Below are positions 55,935-61,634 of a stretch of 64,000 nt of DNA, in pieces. The notes below the pieces were generated by a model. The model was not told the DNA's origin and did not search any database. It saw nothing but the letters and a program-made list of their open reading frames with translations. Made by a program: the position numbers and the translations under genes. The DNA comes from Actinomycetota bacterium (GTDB taxonomy: Bacteria; Actinomycetota; UBA4738; HRBIN12). Numbering within the stretch: the first letter of the stretch is position 1; each line of letters begins with the position of its first letter. The stretch lies in NCBI GenBank assembly GCA_040004125.1, contig JBDUBL010000002.1:5338-69337 (forward strand), written 5' to 3'.

Positions 55935-56357
55935 ATGCCACGCGCCACCGACACCAAGGACGGCGCCACCTCGTCGAAGACCAAGACGACGGCCGCGAAA
56001 CCGCGGAAACCTCGCAACGCCACGGCGTCGGCCGACCCCGCCCTGCGGCTCACCGGCGACCGCCTCGTGGTGCGCGTGCCGGGCAACGGCGAGCGCAAGA
56101 GTGCGGGTGGGCTCCTGATCCCGGCCACGGCGATGCCCGCCCCCAAGCGACTGTCCTGGGGCGACGTCACGTTGATCGGGCCCGACGTGCGCGTCGCCAA
56201 GCAAGGAGACCGGGTGCTGTTCCTGCCCTCCGCGGGCCTGGAGGTCGAGCTCGAGGGCGAGGACCTGGTCCTGCTCCGTGAGCGCGACGTCCAGGCGGTT
56301 GCCGAGACCCCCGCCGCGTCCACGGCGAAGGACCGCGCGCCCGGCCAGTACCTCTAG
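55935..56357 (+). CDS. GroES/Cpn10-fold protein with Lys/Thr-rich N-terminal extension
   Basis: GDRLVVRV...ERKSAGGLLIPATA (mobile-loop-like)...GDRVLF...LLRERDVQAV. No groEL nearby. Confidence 0.65.
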   Translation: MPRATDTKDGATSSKTKTTAAKPRKPRNATASADPALRLTGDRLVVRVPGNGERKSAGGLLIPATAMPAPKRLSWGDVTLIGPDVRVAKQGDRVLFLPSAGLEVELEGEDLVLLRERDVQAVAETPAASTAKDRAPGQYL

Positions 56358-56758
56358 GCAGGCACGAAGCTCAGACGAACCGTGCGCTCGTTGTTCTCCC
56401 GGTTCGGGTCCACGAGCACGATCGACTGCCACGTGCCGAGCGCGATCTCGCCGTCCAACACCGGCACGATCAGCGATGGCGAGACGAACGCCGGCATGAT
56501 GTGATCCCCGCCGTGACCAACGCTCCCGTGACGATGCGCATAGCGATCCTCCCGGGGGAAGGTCCGCTCGAGCAGCTCGTCCAGGTCCTGCTCGGAACCG
56601 GCGCCGATTTCGATCATAGCGACGCCGGCCGTCGCGTGCGGAACGAATACGTGCAGGAGCCCGTCGCCGCCGACGTCGCGGACGAACGCACGCGCCTCGA
56701 ACGTGAGATCCACCGTTCGCCGCCCGCGCGTGTCGGCAGTCAACGTGGCCGAACGCAT
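56354..56758 (-). CDS. YjbQ/UPF0047-family protein
   Basis: HATAGV, GDHIMPAF, and LGTWQSIVLVD family motifs. Confidence 0.75.
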   Translation of the reverse strand: MRSATLTADTRGRRTVDLTFEARAFVRDVGGDGLLHVFVPHATAGVAMIEIGAGSEQDLDELLERTFPREDRYAHRHGSVGHGGDHIMPAFVSPSLIVPVLDGEIALGTWQSIVLVDPNRENNERTVRLSFVPA

Positions 56759-56761
56759 CGT

Positions 56762-57808
56762 TCAGCCGGCGGAGGTGGCGAACGTCGGCTCGGCGAGCAC
56801 CTCGGTGTGCTCATCCTCGACGAACGCGTCGAAGCCGAGCTGCCACGTCCTTGCCGGCCAAACGTACCGCGCGACCCGCTCGGTCGCGCGGTACACGGCC
56901 GTGTACAGGGTGCCGAACCCGTGGGCATACGATGTCGAGAACAACGGGGCTCGCAGGAAACTCTCCACGAAGGTATCGGCGTCGATCGTCGCATCGTCCA
57001 GCAGCCGGACGATCGTCTGCTCGCGCTCGATCGTGCGGGTCGCGCGCGCCTGCTCGGGCCACTCCACGATCCCCTGATGGTTCGTCGCCGCCGGGAAGGC
57101 GCGGAAGATCGGCTCCCGGTCGGGCGACAAGTAGGCGGTCAGCACGGCTCCCGTCCCGTCTACCAGCGTGAGGTTGTGACTCAGCGAGTACGGCAGCCGC
57201 GTCAGGACGGCGCGTGCTTCGTCGATCGTGCTGCAGGTCTCCAACAGGTAGCGCAGCACGATCGGGATGCCGAACCCGTCGCCGAGCACGCGACGCCCAC
57301 CGAAGGTCAACGAGACCGCGAGCCCGTCGTCGTTCATGCCGTCGAGCAGCCCCCACAGACAGTCGGTCATGCCGAGCACGCGCTTGTCGAGCAGCCGCGT
57401 CGACCAGATCAGCCCCTCGAATCGCGACGGCGCGTAGTCGTAGTTGCGCACCAGCATCGGCGTGGCGTCACGCGTCCAGACACCCTGGGAGCAGGCCGCA
57501 AGGTACGGCGGTGGCTTGTAGAGCGAGAGCATCCTGGCCGCCAGGTCGCCTCCACCCGCTAGCTCGACGACCCGCTCGTAGGCGGGCATCAGCTCCGGCA
57601 TGTGCGCGCGGAGCATGCGGACACTTGTCGCGTAGGAAGACCGCGCCGCCTCGCCTTCACGCAGGAACCACGTCTTGTAGTGGGGCCATTTCTCCTCGAA
57701 GACGGCCTGCCATTTCGGGCCGGCCTCGAGTTCCTCGACGGCACGGAACGTGAACGGGATCATCCGCATCGCGAGATGTTCCCAGGTCGGCGGTGCCGAA
57801 GCCACCAC
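56762..57808 (-). CDS. C45-family (acyl-CoA:6-APA acyltransferase-like) Ntn-hydrolase-type protein
   Basis: Overall resemblance to the C45/AAT family, with a candidate nucleophile Cys in LAACSQGVW. The start is GTG 57808 or ATG 57769. Confidence 0.55.
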   Translation of the reverse strand: MVASAPPTWEHLAMRMIPFTFRAVEELEAGPKWQAVFEEKWPHYKTWFLREGEAARSSYATSVRMLRAHMPELMPAYERVVELAGGGDLAARMLSLYKPPPYLAACSQGVWTRDATPMLVRNYDYAPSRFEGLIWSTRLLDKRVLGMTDCLWGLLDGMNDDGLAVSLTFGGRRVLGDGFGIPIVLRYLLETCSTIDEARAVLTRLPYSLSHNLTLVDGTGAVLTAYLSPDREPIFRAFPAATNHQGIVEWPEQARATRTIEREQTIVRLLDDATIDADTFVESFLRAPLFSTSYAHGFGTLYTAVYRATERVARYVWPARTWQLGFDAFVEDEHTEVLAEPTFATSAG

Positions 57809-57814
57809 CGTGCG

Positions 57815-59425
57815 TCAGAGCATCTTGAAGCCGAAGGGCTCTGGCTTGACCGTCGGCGGCTCGTCGGCGCCCGGCGGAACGCTTGCGAACTCCCCTTTGA
57901 TGCCCGTGATCCAGCCTCGCGCCCGGTCGAGCAACCGGTGCTCTTCGTCCATGAATCGCCCGCGTGTCACCATGATGCCGAGATCGGCACCCGGGTAACG
58001 GTACTGACCGACCCCGGCGATCCGCAGATAGAACGCCTCACTCTCGTCGGCCACGGTGTGCCAGTCGGTATCGCGACGCGCGAACCCGATGTCGCCGTCG
58101 CCCATCCGCCAGATCCCCGAGCGTGGCGCCTCGGTGATCAACTCGGTCACGTCCTCCGTCTGCTTCAAGATGAACTGGGTCCATTCATCGAGGTTGTGCG
58201 TCTGTGCCCACCGCTCGTTGAGCTCCTGCACGTCGAACTCGAAGTCGACGTCCATGAACTCCAGTAAGTGGAACAGGAATAGCGGCATGTCCCCGTAGGC
58301 GACGGCGGTGACGTTCGTGATGCTGCTCGCGCCAGTGACGCGGGGGTTGAGCTCGCCGAGCCACATCTCTCCGGTGTCGGCGTCGAGCAAGAAGTCCAAC
58401 TCGAAGTACCCGCGGTAGCCCTCTTGGCGCAGACGCTCGCCCATCGCGATCGTGCGCTCGCGCGCGGTGCGCCGCTGTTTCTCGGTGAGCAGCTCCGGCG
58501 AGACATCGTTGCCGCACCAGCCACCGTCGTACGGGGTTAGCTCCGGGAACCCCGTGAGCTCGGCCATCAGCGGACCCACCAACGTGCCGTGACGGGTGAT
58601 CACGCCCTCGATCGCGAGCTCGCGAGGCTCGATACGTTTCATCACCTTGATCCGATCGCCGACGATCTTCTTCTCGTGCTCCTTCCAGCCCCTTCGATCG
58701 GCGATGAAGAAGGTGGTCTGGCCGGAGTCGCCGTACGGCGTCTGCACGACCAAGTCGCTGCCGAGCCCCGCGTCGGCCGCCAACTGCAGCAGCGCCTCGT
58801 AGTCGGTACCGCGGCCCATGACGTTCGGCACACTCGGCACCCCGGCCTCGTTGCCGAGCCGGGTGGTCTCGATCTTGGAATCCATGCGATGGCGCAGCGA
58901 GGCTTTGGGGAACACGACGTCGAGCCCAAGCTCTGCGGCCAGTTCCTCGGTCTCCTCGTCGAACATCAGGAAGGCCGCCTTGCCTGATCCGCCGTTGGCG
59001 GCGATCAGGTCGCCAACCTCCTTGTGCCCCAGCAGGTAGTTGACGATCTCCTCGATCGACTCGAAGGCGCGAGGCGTCTGCTCCTTCGGCACGACGACGT
59101 TCGGATGGGTGCCGTCGAACGAGTCGTAGTAGTTCACGAACCGGAAGTTCCGCACCCAGCGGTCGATCCCGAGCAGATTGAACGCGGTCGCACTGACGAA
59201 ATAGATCGGGGTCTCGTTCGTCCGAAAGAAATTCCGGATCTCCGGGATGCCAGTCAGCGGCTTGGTCGTGATCAGCAAGCCGGGCGCGCCGATCGGCAGG
59301 GTCGGCGTCGCGACCGGCGCCGGGGCCTCTCGCGACAGGTGGTCACGACGATCGGTCCACGCAACCAGCTCGCGGGCGGCGAAGACGAGCACCACCGCGC
59401 CGAGCGCCCACAGCACGGCGGTCAT
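57815..59425 (-). CDS. ATP-grasp ligase with pre-ATP-grasp domain and N-terminal TM helix (peptide-ligase PGM1-like by recollection)
   Basis: ATP-grasp Mg/ATP motif FELDFLLD...GELNPRVTG. N-terminal MTAVLWALGAVVLVFAA. ATG 59425 sits in an ATGA overlap with the M20 gene. The track extension to 60307 is junk. Confidence 0.7.
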   Translation of the reverse strand: MTAVLWALGAVVLVFAARELVAWTDRRDHLSREAPAPVATPTLPIGAPGLLITTKPLTGIPEIRNFFRTNETPIYFVSATAFNLLGIDRWVRNFRFVNYYDSFDGTHPNVVVPKEQTPRAFESIEEIVNYLLGHKEVGDLIAANGGSGKAAFLMFDEETEELAAELGLDVVFPKASLRHRMDSKIETTRLGNEAGVPSVPNVMGRGTDYEALLQLAADAGLGSDLVVQTPYGDSGQTTFFIADRRGWKEHEKKIVGDRIKVMKRIEPRELAIEGVITRHGTLVGPLMAELTGFPELTPYDGGWCGNDVSPELLTEKQRRTARERTIAMGERLRQEGYRGYFELDFLLDADTGEMWLGELNPRVTGASSITNVTAVAYGDMPLFLFHLLEFMDVDFEFDVQELNERWAQTHNLDEWTQFILKQTEDVTELITEAPRSGIWRMGDGDIGFARRDTDWHTVADESEAFYLRIAGVGQYRYPGADLGIMVTRGRFMDEEHRLLDRARGWITGIKGEFASVPPGADEPPTVKPEPFGFKML

Positions 59426-60717
59426 GACAAGCCGCACCAGTCCCGGATGAACAGCCCCATCACCTGTGCGGTCTGGACCACGCTCGGAAGGTACACCCGT
59501 TCGCCTACGCCGTGCGCGGCCTCGGCATACGGCCCGAAACACACAGACGGGATCCCACCGACGTGCCCGAAGACGCGCGCGTCGGTGGTGCCGGTCGTTG
59601 CCACCAAGGCGGGCGAGGCCCCCATGTGCCGGGCATAGGCAGCCGACAGCGAGTCCACGAGCAAGTGGTCCTGCGCGAGCTCGTACCCTTCCGCGGCGAA
59701 CCCTCGGTACACGACCTGCGGCGGTCGAGGGAACGCCGCAGCGTTCGCCGCAGCCGCATCGGCCACGACCCGCTCGACGCGCCGCCGAAGTTCCTGTAAC
59801 GACATGCCCGGGTAGGCAGCGAACCGGTAACCCGTGACGCATTCCCCGGGCACGGTGGAGTTCCAGTCTCCGGCGTGGATCTGCCCGACGTTGAGCGAGA
59901 TCGGGTGCGGGTATGCGTCGTAGGGCGGCGGCGGCGAGGCGTTGAGCTCCGCTTCCAGCACGCGCAGCGCACCGATCATCGTCAGGCTCGCCTCGATCGC
60001 GTTGATCGCGTTGCCCGCCTCGGCGGCGTGGCCGGGCAACCCCTCGATCACGACGTCGAACCACAACACGCCGACCTGCGACGTCGTGATCGCCGCTCCG
60101 AAGGGCTCGGCGATGATCGCGGCGTCGGCCCGGTACCCGGCGAGCAGCGTCTGCAGCGAGCCGTTCCCGGTGCACTCTTCCTCGACGACCGACTGGAGGA
60201 ACACCGGCGCATGGGGCGACAGACCGAGCTCGCGGAGACCTTTCACCGCACCCAGGATCGCGGCGAGCCCGCACTTCATGTCCGCCGCGCCGCGTCCGTA
60301 CAACCAATCGGCCTCGACGTGTGCCGTGAATGGATCACGTTCCCACTGCCCGAGGGGCTCCGGGCTGACGACGTCGATGTGACCGTTCAGGATCAAGCTG
60401 AGCCCGCCGTCGCGGCGCTCGGGAGCCCAGGCGGCGACGAGGTTGTTCTTGCCGCTCACGTGCCAGTCAAAGGGTGAGGCCGCTGGGTGGGCACGCAGTG
60501 CCTCGGGATCCATCGCCACATCGACGGGCTCGAGCCCCAGCTCCCGCAGCGCCTCGCGCATCACGCCCTGACCGGCTTCCTCGTTCCCAAGCGTCGTATC
60601 GCGGTCCACGAGACGGGCGAGCACCTCGGTCATCCAATCGGCACCGGCGGCGATCGCCTCGGCGATCTCGGTGTCCTCAGGAGCCATCTCGGCTGCCTCG
60701 AAGTCGGGCCCCGGCAT
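59422..60717 (-). CDS. M20-family deacylase/peptidase (ArgE/DapE-like)
   Basis: Metal ligands NGHIDVV, GRGAADMKCG and VVEEECTGNG. C-terminal GTTDARVF. The start is ATG 60717 or 60687. Confidence 0.8.
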   Translation of the reverse strand: MPGPDFEAAEMAPEDTEIAEAIAAGADWMTEVLARLVDRDTTLGNEEAGQGVMREALRELGLEPVDVAMDPEALRAHPAASPFDWHVSGKNNLVAAWAPERRDGGLSLILNGHIDVVSPEPLGQWERDPFTAHVEADWLYGRGAADMKCGLAAILGAVKGLRELGLSPHAPVFLQSVVEEECTGNGSLQTLLAGYRADAAIIAEPFGAAITTSQVGVLWFDVVIEGLPGHAAEAGNAINAIEASLTMIGALRVLEAELNASPPPPYDAYPHPISLNVGQIHAGDWNSTVPGECVTGYRFAAYPGMSLQELRRRVERVVADAAAANAAAFPRPPQVVYRGFAAEGYELAQDHLLVDSLSAAYARHMGASPALVATTGTTDARVFGHVGGIPSVCFGPYAEAAHGVGERVYLPSVVQTAQVMGLFIRDWCGLS

Positions 60718-60891
60718 CGGGAGACCCGCGTACGCCAGTTCCGGTGGCCCGGGGCCGGCCGAGAGCTGACTCCCCGCGTACGCCGCCGGGGCCACGTCTT
60801 CAGGAAGCGGTTCCAAGGTCGTGAAGCGTACCAACCGAACGTGACGCCACGTGGGACTGGACGTATGGATGTAATGATGTAATCTTCTCGC

Positions 60892-61416
60892 ATGAATGAA
60901 AACAGCGATTTCCAGGAACATCTTGTCGGTTGGTTCGCAGGACGCCTCCCCAACGATTGGTTCACGGCGGCGCCGGACGTGCGATTCGATCGAGACGAGA
61001 TCCTGGTGGTGGGATCGCTCGACGAACCCGACCTGCCAGGGGATGCCGGCCCCGAAACCCGCAAGGCGGCCCTCTCGGCCCGGATCCAGGGGTTCCGCGA
61101 GGACACGCGTGGACAGCGGATGCGGGTCGCCGATGAGGCGGAGCGCCGATTCGGGCGCAAGGTCAGTTGGGGCGCAACGTGTGGTGACCATCGTGTCTTG
61201 TTCACCGCGGTCGCGACGCCGGCCATGACCCGCCTGCGGATGCCCGAGCGCACCGTGCTCGACACGCTCGTCGACGCAGGGGTCGCCCGCTCTCGCAGTC
61301 ACGCCTTAGCCTGGTGTGTGCGTCTGGTCTCGGAGAAGCAGGAGGAGTGGCTGGCTGACCTCCGACAGGCACTCGAAAGCGTCGAGGCCGTCCGCCGGGA
61401 GGGGCCGACGACCTAA
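60892..61416 (+). CDS. Hypothetical protein
   Basis: 174-aa frame with an AT-richer 5' end. No family recognised. The C-terminal part is helical and charged. Confidence 0.5.
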   Translation: MNENSDFQEHLVGWFAGRLPNDWFTAAPDVRFDRDEILVVGSLDEPDLPGDAGPETRKAALSARIQGFREDTRGQRMRVADEAERRFGRKVSWGATCGDHRVLFTAVATPAMTRLRMPERTVLDTLVDAGVARSRSHALAWCVRLVSEKQEEWLADLRQALESVEAVRREGPTT

Positions 61417-61634
61417 GGGCGGCCCGAGCGCCGCTCGATCCCTACGACAACGTTCATCGCGAAACGCACCACGACGGGCTCACCGACGACGAGCGCCTCT
61501 GGAACGCTCTCGGTCCCGAGTTGCGCCTGCATGAATGTGTGATCGGGGAAGGCGAGCGCGACCCTCACGTACGGCGATCCATGGACCGCATACGGCTCCA
61601 CCTGCGCCACCACCGCGTCTCGCTCCCCCAGCAC
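61413..61634 (-). CDS. Small hypothetical protein
   Basis: 73 codons with a strong G/C third-position bias. GTG start. Confidence 0.4.
   Translation of the reverse strand: MLGERDAVVAQVEPYAVHGSPYVRVALAFPDHTFMQAQLGTESVPEALVVGEPVVVRFAMNVVVGIERRSGRP

Follow-up and report, generated by a model that had tools for sequence, protein, structure and literature searches.

Which genes form a unit, and what chemistry do they carry out, when an amide-forming enzyme is encoded next to two amide-cleaving ones? The question is raised by a locus in a 64,000-nucleotide stretch of an Actinomycetota genome (contig JBDUBL010000002.1 of assembly GCA_040004125.1, positions 5,338 to 69,337), here called the window, whose own coordinates are used throughout. 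The window has 65-73% G+C, and four genes follow one another on its minus strand: an M20 deacylase gene of the PRK06837 ArgE/DapE type (59422-60717), an ATP-grasp gene coding for 536 aa (57815-59425), a gene for a C45 N-terminal cysteine nucleophile (Cys-Ntn) amidase/acyltransferase (56762-57769, or from 57808 with an alternative start), and a YjbQ/UPF0047 gene (56354-56758). The original prediction, based on the letters of the window, had joined them into one uncharacterised cassette. Its four genes, their junctions (an ATGA overlap, 6 or 46 nt, and 3 nt) and the GELNPR and M20 motifs were re-derived as stated there. Identities obtained with hidden Markov models (HMMs) and Foldseek agree with an uncharacterised set of amide ligase and amide hydrolase, and neither a non-ribosomal peptide synthetase, a precursor peptide nor a known pathway surrounds the cassette.

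Extent of the unit and its empty site

The unit is a three-gene, co-oriented and tightly coupled block in the order M20, ATP-grasp, C45, which is gained or lost whole at a position flanked by the backbone genes Rv1265-like and YjbQ. The constant core of the block is formed by the ATP-grasp ligase and C45, an essentially obligate pair found adjacent in many phyla. M20 is a dependent yet dispensable third member, and YjbQ is a backbone neighbour outside the unit.

To delimit the block, one genome per species was scanned for relatives of the ligase, which are encoded at no fewer than 592 loci. Synteny was inspected in a sample of 90 loci, comprised of the 80 most similar of these and 10 from a phylum-wide search, with open reading frames (ORFs) in fetched loci called heuristically, as the longest ORF combined with a filter on third-position G+C. 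Phyletic profiles were built from 121 genomes of the window's own family, the same draw being used for every gene.

In 80 of the 90 loci, spread over at least six phyla, the ligase has a C45 orthologue no more than 3 kb away, and in 71 of the 90 the distance is at most 350 nt. The C45 gene is nearly always located directly downstream and on the same strand, often with an overlapping or a 3-nt junction, and two of the ten loci without a nearby C45 are contig ends. M20 orthologues occur within 600 nt of the ligase in 20/90 loci, every one from Actinomycetota. YjbQ is found within 3 kb in 11/90, solely in the window's own clade, and these loci also share backbone neighbours, typically Cpn10, PrmC, S9 and MoaA. 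Because it is confined to this clade and accompanied there by its other backbone neighbours, the proximity of YjbQ is regarded as lineage synteny.

The family profiles give the same picture. The ligase is present in 47 of the 121 genomes (34 of the 68 of high quality), and a C45 orthologue accompanies it in 46 of these 47 while being absent from all 74 ligase-negative genomes. M20 orthologues (at least 62% identity) were detected in 31/47 ligase-positive and 0/74 ligase-negative genomes; 16 genomes carry the ligase and C45 without M20, and M20 never occurs without the pair. YjbQ, on the other hand, is present in 105/121 genomes, namely in 43 with and 62 without the ligase.

An empty site was found in a complete genome of the same genus, in which the order is NlpC/P60, Rv1265-like, 183 nt, YjbQ, Cpn10, PrmC, S9 and MoaA. 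Exactly M20, ligase and C45 are missing while YjbQ is retained, and a second genome shows the same arrangement. In some relatives within the clade, one or two genes (membrane-protein genes) intervene between C45 and YjbQ. At the window locus YjbQ is probably co-transcribed with the block, given the 3-nt gap. As a member of the pathway it was rejected, being uncoupled from the ligase in the family, kept in empty sites and absent near the ligase outside the clade. The four-gene cassette of the original prediction is thereby reduced: YjbQ is present in 62 of the 74 ligase-negative genomes, M20 is limited to the actinobacterial clade, and only ligase plus C45 is general.

Two irregular loci were noted. 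In a two-contig genome of the family (94% complete; G183:C1:1927751-1928536) only the C-terminal 266 residues of M20 stand beside an intact ligase and C45, which fits a dispensable and decaying M20. At the other locus (G154:C21:297827-299237) the ligase is split into two overlapping frames, covering model positions 6-181 and 178-478, and represents either a frameshifted pseudogene or an assembly error.

Family, fold and motifs of the ATP-grasp ligase

According to its fold and its E-x-N-x-R motif, the ligase is a member of the ATP-grasp superfamily, in which it represents an orphan branch of the biotin carboxylase/PurK-like group. It matches NF005096 (PRK06524), an NCBI equivalog named “biotin carboxylase”, with 743.3 bits at a cut-off of 684. 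More than 7500 homologues were found, the best 120 being 72-90% identical, and those with E ≤ 1e-30 make up 369 clusters at 50% clustering. None of the Pfam families matched at E ≤ 0.01, including the pre-ATP-grasp and PGM1 models. Since no Pfam model matched, the pre-ATP-grasp-type N-domain proposed originally is not confirmed as a family assignment. A position outside characterised housekeeping ligase families is borne out.

The AlphaFold2 model of the ligase (mean predicted local distance difference test score, pLDDT, 87; predicted template modelling score 0.82) gave 583 Foldseek matches in the PDB at E ≤ 0.001. The best 50 are all biotin carboxylase domains or PurK, with E values of ~1e-16 to 1e-14, template modelling (TM) scores of ~0.5 and identities of 11-16%. 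A sequence search for solved relatives returned weak matches to biotin carboxylase domains only. The profile of the ligase family is similar to biotin carboxylase domains (E 3e-12), urea amidolyase (3e-6) and carbamoyl-phosphate synthetase (2e-4), and it matches PGM1 (3wvq) with E = 0.003 and 19.6 bits over 59 residues that correspond to a generic C-terminal motif. Resemblance to PGM1-type peptide ligases, which the original prediction had proposed, thus yields to a much closer relationship with biotin carboxylase domains, both in profiles (0.003 vs 3e-12) and among the best 50 structural matches.

Residues E358, N360 and R362 are invariant and belong to GELNPR (residues 357-362; 58340-58357, minus strand), the ATP-grasp Mg/phosphate motif, which aligns with EVNPR of pyruvate carboxylase. 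In the alignment to the R. etli pyruvate carboxylase, Ala366, in a variable column, stands opposite the general-base Glu of biotin carboxylases (E296 in E. coli, E305 in the R. etli enzyme). Furthermore, the DCSxQRRxQK strand that carries K238 in biotin carboxylases is replaced by DGGWC-GN, and K238 is not conserved. The family-specific and nearly invariant GGWCGN (residues 301-306; 58508-58525, minus strand) is a candidate substrate-site element, while the conserved glycine-rich GDSGQTTFF (residues 232-240; 58706-58732, minus strand) probably forms a flexible loop covering ATP. Fold, profile, the missing Glu and Lys, and the absence of biotin carboxyl carrier protein (BCCP) and carboxyltransferase from the annotated neighbour families show that the ligase is neither of the PGM1 type nor a canonical biotin carboxylase. 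Longer homologues (565-775 aa) contain no recognisable extra domain and include no ligase-C45 fusion.

Homology among the ligases always begins near residue 54. Upstream of this position, residues 3-21 (59363-59419, minus strand) form a hydrophobic helix with a Kyte-Doolittle value of 2.0; in the AlphaFold2 model the helix extends over residues 2-30, and residues 32-52 are disordered. In close relatives the hydrophobic helix is followed by a stretch rich in Arg and then by a variable linker. Among 108 homologues with an identity of 72% or more, 86 have the helix (Kyte-Doolittle ≥ 1.6), and the segment is absent from 27 distant full-length homologues. Judged from these sequences, the membrane anchor appears genuine but clade-specific, so that the N-terminal transmembrane helix described earlier stands for the close clade and fails for distant orthologues. 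Since positive charges follow the helix, the positive-inside rule would place the catalytic domain in the cytoplasm.

The C45 and M20 enzymes

The C45 protein exceeds the cut-offs of NF040521 (161.9 bits vs 85) and PF03417 (98.5 bits vs 23.2). It carries the sequence A92-C93-S-Q, and the Cys of the [G/A]-C-S-Q motif as well as RNYDY (108-112) are invariant in 66 orthologues. In the AlphaFold2 model (pLDDT 94), Cys93 starts a strand (92-98) following an N-terminal segment of ~91 largely helical residues. The codon of this residue (57491-57493, minus strand) marks the predicted N-terminal nucleophile, as indicated by invariance and by the model. The best Foldseek match is isopenicillin-N acyltransferase (2x1c; TM 0.71), followed by penicillin V acylases, bile-salt hydrolases, NAAA and acid ceramidase, while a sequence search for solved C45 relatives found none. 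The model therefore presents C45 as a bona fide Cys-Ntn amidase/acyltransferase, with self-cleavage predicted between Ala92 and Cys93.

M20 matches NF005306 with 445.8 bits (cut-off 376), together with PF01546 and PF07687, and its metal-ligand residues are present (HID 113-115, DMK 146-148, EEE 179-181 and H402). Its nearest solved structure, 3pfo (E 3e-72), is an uncharacterised structural-genomics protein. A second M20 paralogue, 37% identical, is encoded elsewhere in the window's genome (G000:C106:5663-6889); it is considered unrelated to the block because it also occurs in family genomes without the ligase. The YjbQ protein was assigned by PF01894 (87.8 bits vs 27) and by TIGR00149, where its 69.5 bits are just over the cut-off of 67.75.

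Genomic context in other lineages

The ligase tree of the 90 sampled rows splits into two clades, each with 100% local support. Clade I (39 rows, including the window) is actinobacterial except for one contig labelled Planctomycetaceae, and its third gene is M20 in 21 rows and a CN-hydrolase in none. Clade II (51 rows) comprises Alpha- and Gammaproteobacteria, Gemmatimonadota, Bacteroidota, Deinococcota, Chloroflexota and one actinobacterium; here the third gene is a CN-hydrolase of the nitrilase superfamily in 38 rows and M20 in none. M20 and CN-hydrolase were never found together at any of the 90 ligase loci. Because their alternation follows the single deep split in the tree, it represents about one evolutionary event.

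The contig with the planctomycete label, JBLMXP010000166.1 from a metagenome-assembled genome, is ~80% identical to and fully syntenic with the actinobacterial loci, and nests in their clade. Its order is Rv1265-like, M20, ligase, C45, further genes, YjbQ, Cpn10, PrmC, S9 and MoaA. On account of this identity, synteny and nesting it is probably mis-binned.

Neighbour families were established by unsupervised clustering of ORFs followed by HMM annotation, and from annotated records. A 925-aa pyridoxal-phosphate (PLP) protein with the Orn/Lys/Arg decarboxylase fold is present in 43/90 loci and a CN-hydrolase in 39/90, and the typical operon of clade II consists of CN-hydrolase, the 925-aa decarboxylase-fold enzyme, ligase and C45. 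These genes are often accompanied by those for a class-III aminotransferase, an SSADH-like aldehyde dehydrogenase, amino-acid permeases, TAXI-TRAP or SSF transporters, and AsnC or MocR regulators; no homologue of a TRAP system was found in the window's genome, which is 80% complete. As an illustration, Gemmatimonadales loci encode aminotransferase, CN-hydrolase, decarboxylase, ligase, C45, permease and aldehyde dehydrogenase. A Chondrinema plasmid carries SSADH, gabT, CN-hydrolase, decarboxylase, permease, ligase and C45, and on a Roseobacter ponti plasmid gabT is close by, followed by the four genes and a peptide-type ABC importer. Among clade I loci, those of Solirubrobacterales additionally encode the decarboxylase together with an aldehyde dehydrogenase and a copper amine oxidase. 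Some other Actinomycetota likewise have copper amine oxidase, and some have a beta-lactamase-fold hydrolase or an amidase-signature enzyme alongside the ligase.

In Shinella and Roseateles the ligase and C45 are accompanied by a permease, an agmatinase-family ureohydrolase, 5-guanidino-2-oxopentanoate decarboxylase, an aldehyde dehydrogenase, a D-amino-acid dehydrogenase, a racemase and RidA. On plasmids of Shinella zoogloeoides and Roseateles sp. (loci L114 and L115) the pair is placed inside an apparently complete operon leading from D/L-arginine through 2-ketoarginine and 4-guanidinobutyrate to γ-aminobutyric acid (GABA). The decarboxylase of these operons is AruI-like and the ureohydrolase GbuA-like, and next to them lie genes for a CN-hydrolase and a divergently oriented AsnC regulator.

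In nine loci of Halomonadaceae (Billgrantia, Halomonas, Litchfieldella and Franzmannia; L069, L070, L079, L080, L085, L086, L092, L097 and L100) the CN-hydrolase, ligase, C45 and 925-aa genes lie within the ectoine-degradation (doe) cluster. They are inserted between doeA/doeB/doeX and an SSADH-like dehydrogenase with an aminotransferase, which occupy the doeC and doeD positions; doeA and doeB exceed their equivalog cut-offs. This placement suggests a link to the catabolism of diaminobutyrate or ectoine.

Rhizobial conjugative plasmids, symbiosis or megaplasmids of Rhizobium leguminosarum and Sinorhizobium meliloti (L117, L112 and L113), have a variant operon in which a PLP enzyme of ~900 aa, the ligase and C45 are combined with an amidase-signature enzyme and an ABC importer of the peptide type. 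In R. leguminosarum bv. trifolii this operon is located near fixAB and a Nif11-type cluster for a ribosomally synthesised and post-translationally modified peptide (RiPP).

Taken as a whole, the context of the pair points to catabolism of amines derived from basic amino acids. The original proposal of a cassette that makes, trims and recycles a small peptide at the membrane does not agree with these catabolic surroundings in other lineages.

A possible role in amine catabolism and its alternatives

For the role of the pair we tentatively favour, with confidence short of even, a Puu-like route of amine catabolism in which an amine is protected, oxidised and deprotected. At the expense of ATP, the ATP-grasp enzyme would convert a small carboxylate into an activated acyl-phosphate, and the acid would be joined to the amino group of an amine or omega-amino compound from the arginine, ornithine, lysine and diaminobutyrate family. 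An aldehyde dehydrogenase, acting with either an aminotransferase or a copper amine oxidase, would then oxidise the rest of the acylated molecule. The self-processed C45, with Cys93 at its N-terminus, would hydrolyse the amide to release a GABA-type omega-amino acid, and the carrier acid would be recycled. M20 might strip a second N-acyl or N-carbamoyl group; at loci outside the actinobacterial clade a CN-hydrolase is present. In the window's clade, the N-terminal helix of the ligase would anchor the enzyme to the membrane on its cytoplasmic side.

Several lineages encode together a decarboxylase, an ATP-dependent ligase, an amine-to-aldehyde enzyme, an aldehyde dehydrogenase, an amide hydrolase, a GABA aminotransferase and SSADH, and because of these catabolic neighbours across lineages every functional role of a Puu-type route is represented. 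The combination of ligase, amine-oxidising enzyme, aldehyde dehydrogenase and amide hydrolase occurs in Gemmatimonadales, Solirubrobacterales, Chondrinema and Halomonadaceae, and not at the window locus, although paralogues of two families of the oxidising step are encoded elsewhere in the window's genome, away from the block.

A number of observations weigh against this route. No oxidase, aminotransferase or dehydrogenase adjoins the block in the window, and its genome, again at 80% completeness, has no homologue of the large decarboxylase or of the CN-hydrolase. In Shinella and Roseateles the intermediates are guanidino compounds (2-ketoarginine, guanidinobutanal and guanidinobutyrate) instead of free diamines, so a ligase protecting diamines would have no obvious substrate there. 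Deprotection requires a single hydrolase, and the route gives no real reason for a second, CN-hydrolase or M20, to be nearly constant; the alternation of the two, in addition, amounts to about one event and not to many independent ones. The tight coupling of ligase and C45 fits consecutive steps or a single complex better than the first and the last step of a route, and the nearest folds of the ligase are carboxylases that use bicarbonate. Finally, literature searches found no paper on the ligase family or on the ligase-C45 pair, and the roles proposed for every member are drawn from sequence, models and gene context.

As the main alternative, the ligase would be a biotin-independent, PurK-like carboxylase of guanidino, ureido or urea nitrogen, whose labile N-carboxy product is hydrolysed or deiminated by C45. 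Agmatine, 4-guanidinobutyrate, arginine-derived compounds, guanidine or urea would serve as substrates, and CN-hydrolase or M20 would complete the release of NH3 and CO2, in parallel with guanidine carboxylase, carboxyguanidine deiminase and allophanate hydrolase, or with urea amidolyase. Such a sequence accounts for the constant trio of a ligase and two amidohydrolases, for the presence of CN-hydrolase or M20 but never both (the two families are rich in N-carbamoyl amidohydrolases), and for the ligase-C45 coupling, as consecutive steps. It is in line with the 50 best structural matches, all biotin carboxylase domains or PurK, with the profile matches to biotin carboxylase domains, urea amidolyase and carbamoyl-phosphate synthetase (3e-12, 3e-6 and 2e-4), and with the position of the pair inside the arginine to 4-guanidinobutyrate operon of Shinella and Roseateles; most operons bearing the decarboxylase also have no recurring cluster of agmatinase or deiminase type beside the pair. 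Nevertheless, the general-base Glu is replaced by the variable Ala366 and K238 is not conserved, the Shinella operon already has a ureohydrolase of the guanidinobutyrase type, and we know of no C45 enzyme acting on N-carboxy compounds. Searches of 24 diverse loci and of the 55.5-62 kb segment of the window revealed no riboswitch, for guanidine or otherwise. Urease-alpha-like genes, one of which is present in the window's own genome, show no complementarity with the ligase (31/47 ligase-positive vs 37/74 ligase-negative genomes), and an alternative urea-degrading system was rejected for this lack of anticorrelation. We consider N-carboxylation rather unlikely, and the same low probability is given to the wider claim that the PRK06524 family and C45 constitute an unrecognised ATP-driven two-enzyme step of nitrogen-compound catabolism. 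This step would be either a biotin-independent N-carboxylation and hydrolysis stripping guanidino or ureido nitrogen, or an ATP-grasp masking of amines distinct from gamma-glutamylation, present in at least ~600 species-level lineages of at least six phyla, membrane-tethered in the window's clade and with M20 there in the place that a CN-hydrolase takes in the other clade.

Alternatively, in a refined form of the original proposal, the ligase could build a dipeptide-like or acyl-amine metabolite, such as an osmolyte, a storage compound or a signal, much as carnosine synthase or the Ebony step of insects does, and a Tan-like C45 and a carnosinase-like M20 would hydrolyse it. Enzymes that form or break beta-alanyl or GABA-yl amides occur in each of the three superfamilies, the trio is self-contained in the window's lineage, without catabolic neighbours, many carriers are halophilic or marine, and in Halomonadaceae the pair resides within the doe cluster. 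We nonetheless find this improbable, since a synthetase transcribed together with two enzymes that hydrolyse what it makes would run a futile cycle unless some further regulation applied, neighbours elsewhere are degradative and not biosynthetic (uptake systems, decarboxylases, aminotransferases, dehydrogenases, gabT and SSADH), and no conserved exporter was observed. It is still less probable, to the point of being very doubtful, that the two proteins form a two-subunit amidoligase in which C45, as an Ntn glutaminase, delivers ammonia to the ATP-grasp enzyme as CarA does to CarB. Near-obligate co-occurrence and adjacency (46/47 and 80/90) with frequent overlapping or 3-nt junctions, the weak similarity of the ligase profile to carbamoyl-phosphate synthetase, and an N-terminal Cys nucleophile predicted in C45 as in class-II amidotransferases would suit this arrangement. 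The best structural match of C45 is, however, an acyltransferase/amidase, with bile-salt and penicillin V hydrolases next, the longer ligase homologues include no fusion with C45, and to our knowledge no C45 member is a glutaminase. Two further identities were rejected on domain, residue and neighbour evidence. A PGM1-type ligase decorating a ribosomal peptide is suggested by the shared ATP-grasp fold alone, together with the 3wvq match at E = 0.003 in a generic C-terminal motif. It is extremely improbable in view of the missing Pfam pre-ATP-grasp and PGM1 matches and the catabolic context, and no room is left for a precursor gene, with M20 and ligase overlapping and ligase and C45 no more than 350 nt apart in 71/90 loci; the sole small conserved ORF nearby (61413-61634) and the gene at 60892-61416 belong to the backbone and are kept without the ligase. 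The NCBI name of NF005096 and the similarity in fold to biotin carboxylase domains would speak for a genuine biotin carboxylase subunit, but this can hardly be reconciled with catalytic Glu and Lys that are not conserved, an identity of 11-16%, a C45 amidase as partner, and the absence of BCCP and carboxyltransferase from the neighbour families annotated at the 90 loci.

Gene boundaries and flanking elements

M20 and the ligase are joined by the ATGA overlap at 59422-59425. The TGA of the ligase is followed after 6 nt by a GTG at 57808, or after 46 nt by an ATG at 57769. The latter is most likely the start of C45 (335 aa), because its relatives are annotated as proteins of 334-335 aa. Three nucleotides (ACG) separate the TGA of C45 from the ATG of YjbQ. 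For M20, candidate starts are ATG 60717, GTG ~60792 and TTG ~60815; relatives are called at 464-481 aa, and the gene may start 75-100 nt further upstream. A scan of the block for promoters and terminators gave no signal above background.

The upstream insertion boundary of the block is formed by the divergent spacer (60718-60891) between M20 and the Rv1265-like gene (60892-61416, plus strand; 174 aa), a backbone gene kept in ligase-free genomes. Directly upstream of the start of the latter, at 60860-60890, an AT-rich element, GAGATTACATCATTACA, contains a tandem ATTACATC repeat. It belongs to the Rv1265-like gene and not to the ligase operon, because family genomes conserve it whether or not they have the block, and it is a candidate operator or promoter element of that gene. 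An ORF of 73 aa (61413-61634, minus strand), without a Pfam match, is convergent to the Rv1265-like gene, the two sharing 4 nt. Its identity across the family is 42-54%, ligase-free genomes included. As precursors or partners, the ORFs in 60892-61634 were set aside, since both persist in genomes without the ligase.

Implications

For the window, this work redraws the unit as three genes instead of four and corrects the family of the ligase away from PGM1 and RiPP enzymes. All the superfamilies involved are known; what is new is an uncharacterised and widely conserved enzyme pair with a probably misleading database name. The automatic name “biotin carboxylase”, attached to a family of thousands of sequences (more than 7500 homologues), is very probably a misannotation. 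Pairing with C45 and placement in arginine, ornithine, lysine, ectoine and GABA catabolism point to an unrecognised ATP-consuming step, which would bear on the use of basic amino acids and amines by soil and marine bacteria, and thus on nitrogen turnover and the recycling of compatible solutes. Culturable carriers are available among Halomonadaceae, Roseobacteraceae, Cupriavidus and Shinella.

Comparison with known systems

The window ligase is a member of NF005096/PRK06524, whose name implies a function that its sequence does not support, and no characterised member of PRK06524 was found in literature searches. With PGM1, the peptide ligase of pheganomycin, it shares the ATP-grasp superfamily, whereas the block has neither a PGM1 domain match nor a precursor peptide. 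Urea amidolyase and guanidine carboxylase systems resemble the block in linking a biotin-carboxylase-like ATP-grasp enzyme to amide hydrolases in a nitrogen-rich context. The block differs from them in having no biotin-carrier or carboxyltransferase domains and no catalytic Glu, as well as in the absence of a guanidine riboswitch from the 24 loci and the window, and of anticorrelation with urease.

Isopenicillin-N acyltransferase (2x1c/2x1d), the founding member of C45, matches the C45 protein over its full length (TM 0.71), and in both a pro-segment precedes a nucleophile Cys at the start of a strand. Identity is 14%, however, the predicted cleavage site in the window's family is an Ala-Cys or Gly-Cys bond preceding S-Q, and there is no hint of beta-lactam chemistry. 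The ATP-grasp superfamily also includes carnosine synthase, and M20 the carnosinases. Insect Tan is a characterised C45 enzyme that hydrolyses N-beta-alanyl-amines (PMC1285064). All three superfamilies of the block are thus matched by Ebony/Tan and carnosine synthase/carnosinase, although Ebony is NRPS-like, there is no close sequence relationship, and the bacterial context is catabolic.

In the gamma-glutamylation (Puu) pathway of putrescine and cadaverine catabolism, PuuA acts as the ligase, PuuB and PuuC carry out the oxidation, and PuuD is the hydrolase. The pathway is reviewed in PMC9397018. The enzymes of the block are unrelated to these, with an ATP-grasp ligase where PuuA has a glutamine-synthetase fold, and a C45 Ntn hydrolase where PuuD is class-I amidotransferase-like; the pair is joined by a second hydrolase, CN-hydrolase or M20, and in the window the oxidising enzymes are not adjacent. 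The feature in common with Puu and Pau is that, in several lineages, genes for an ATP-dependent ligase and an amide hydrolase lie together with those for amine oxidation, aldehyde dehydrogenase, GABA aminotransferase and SSADH.

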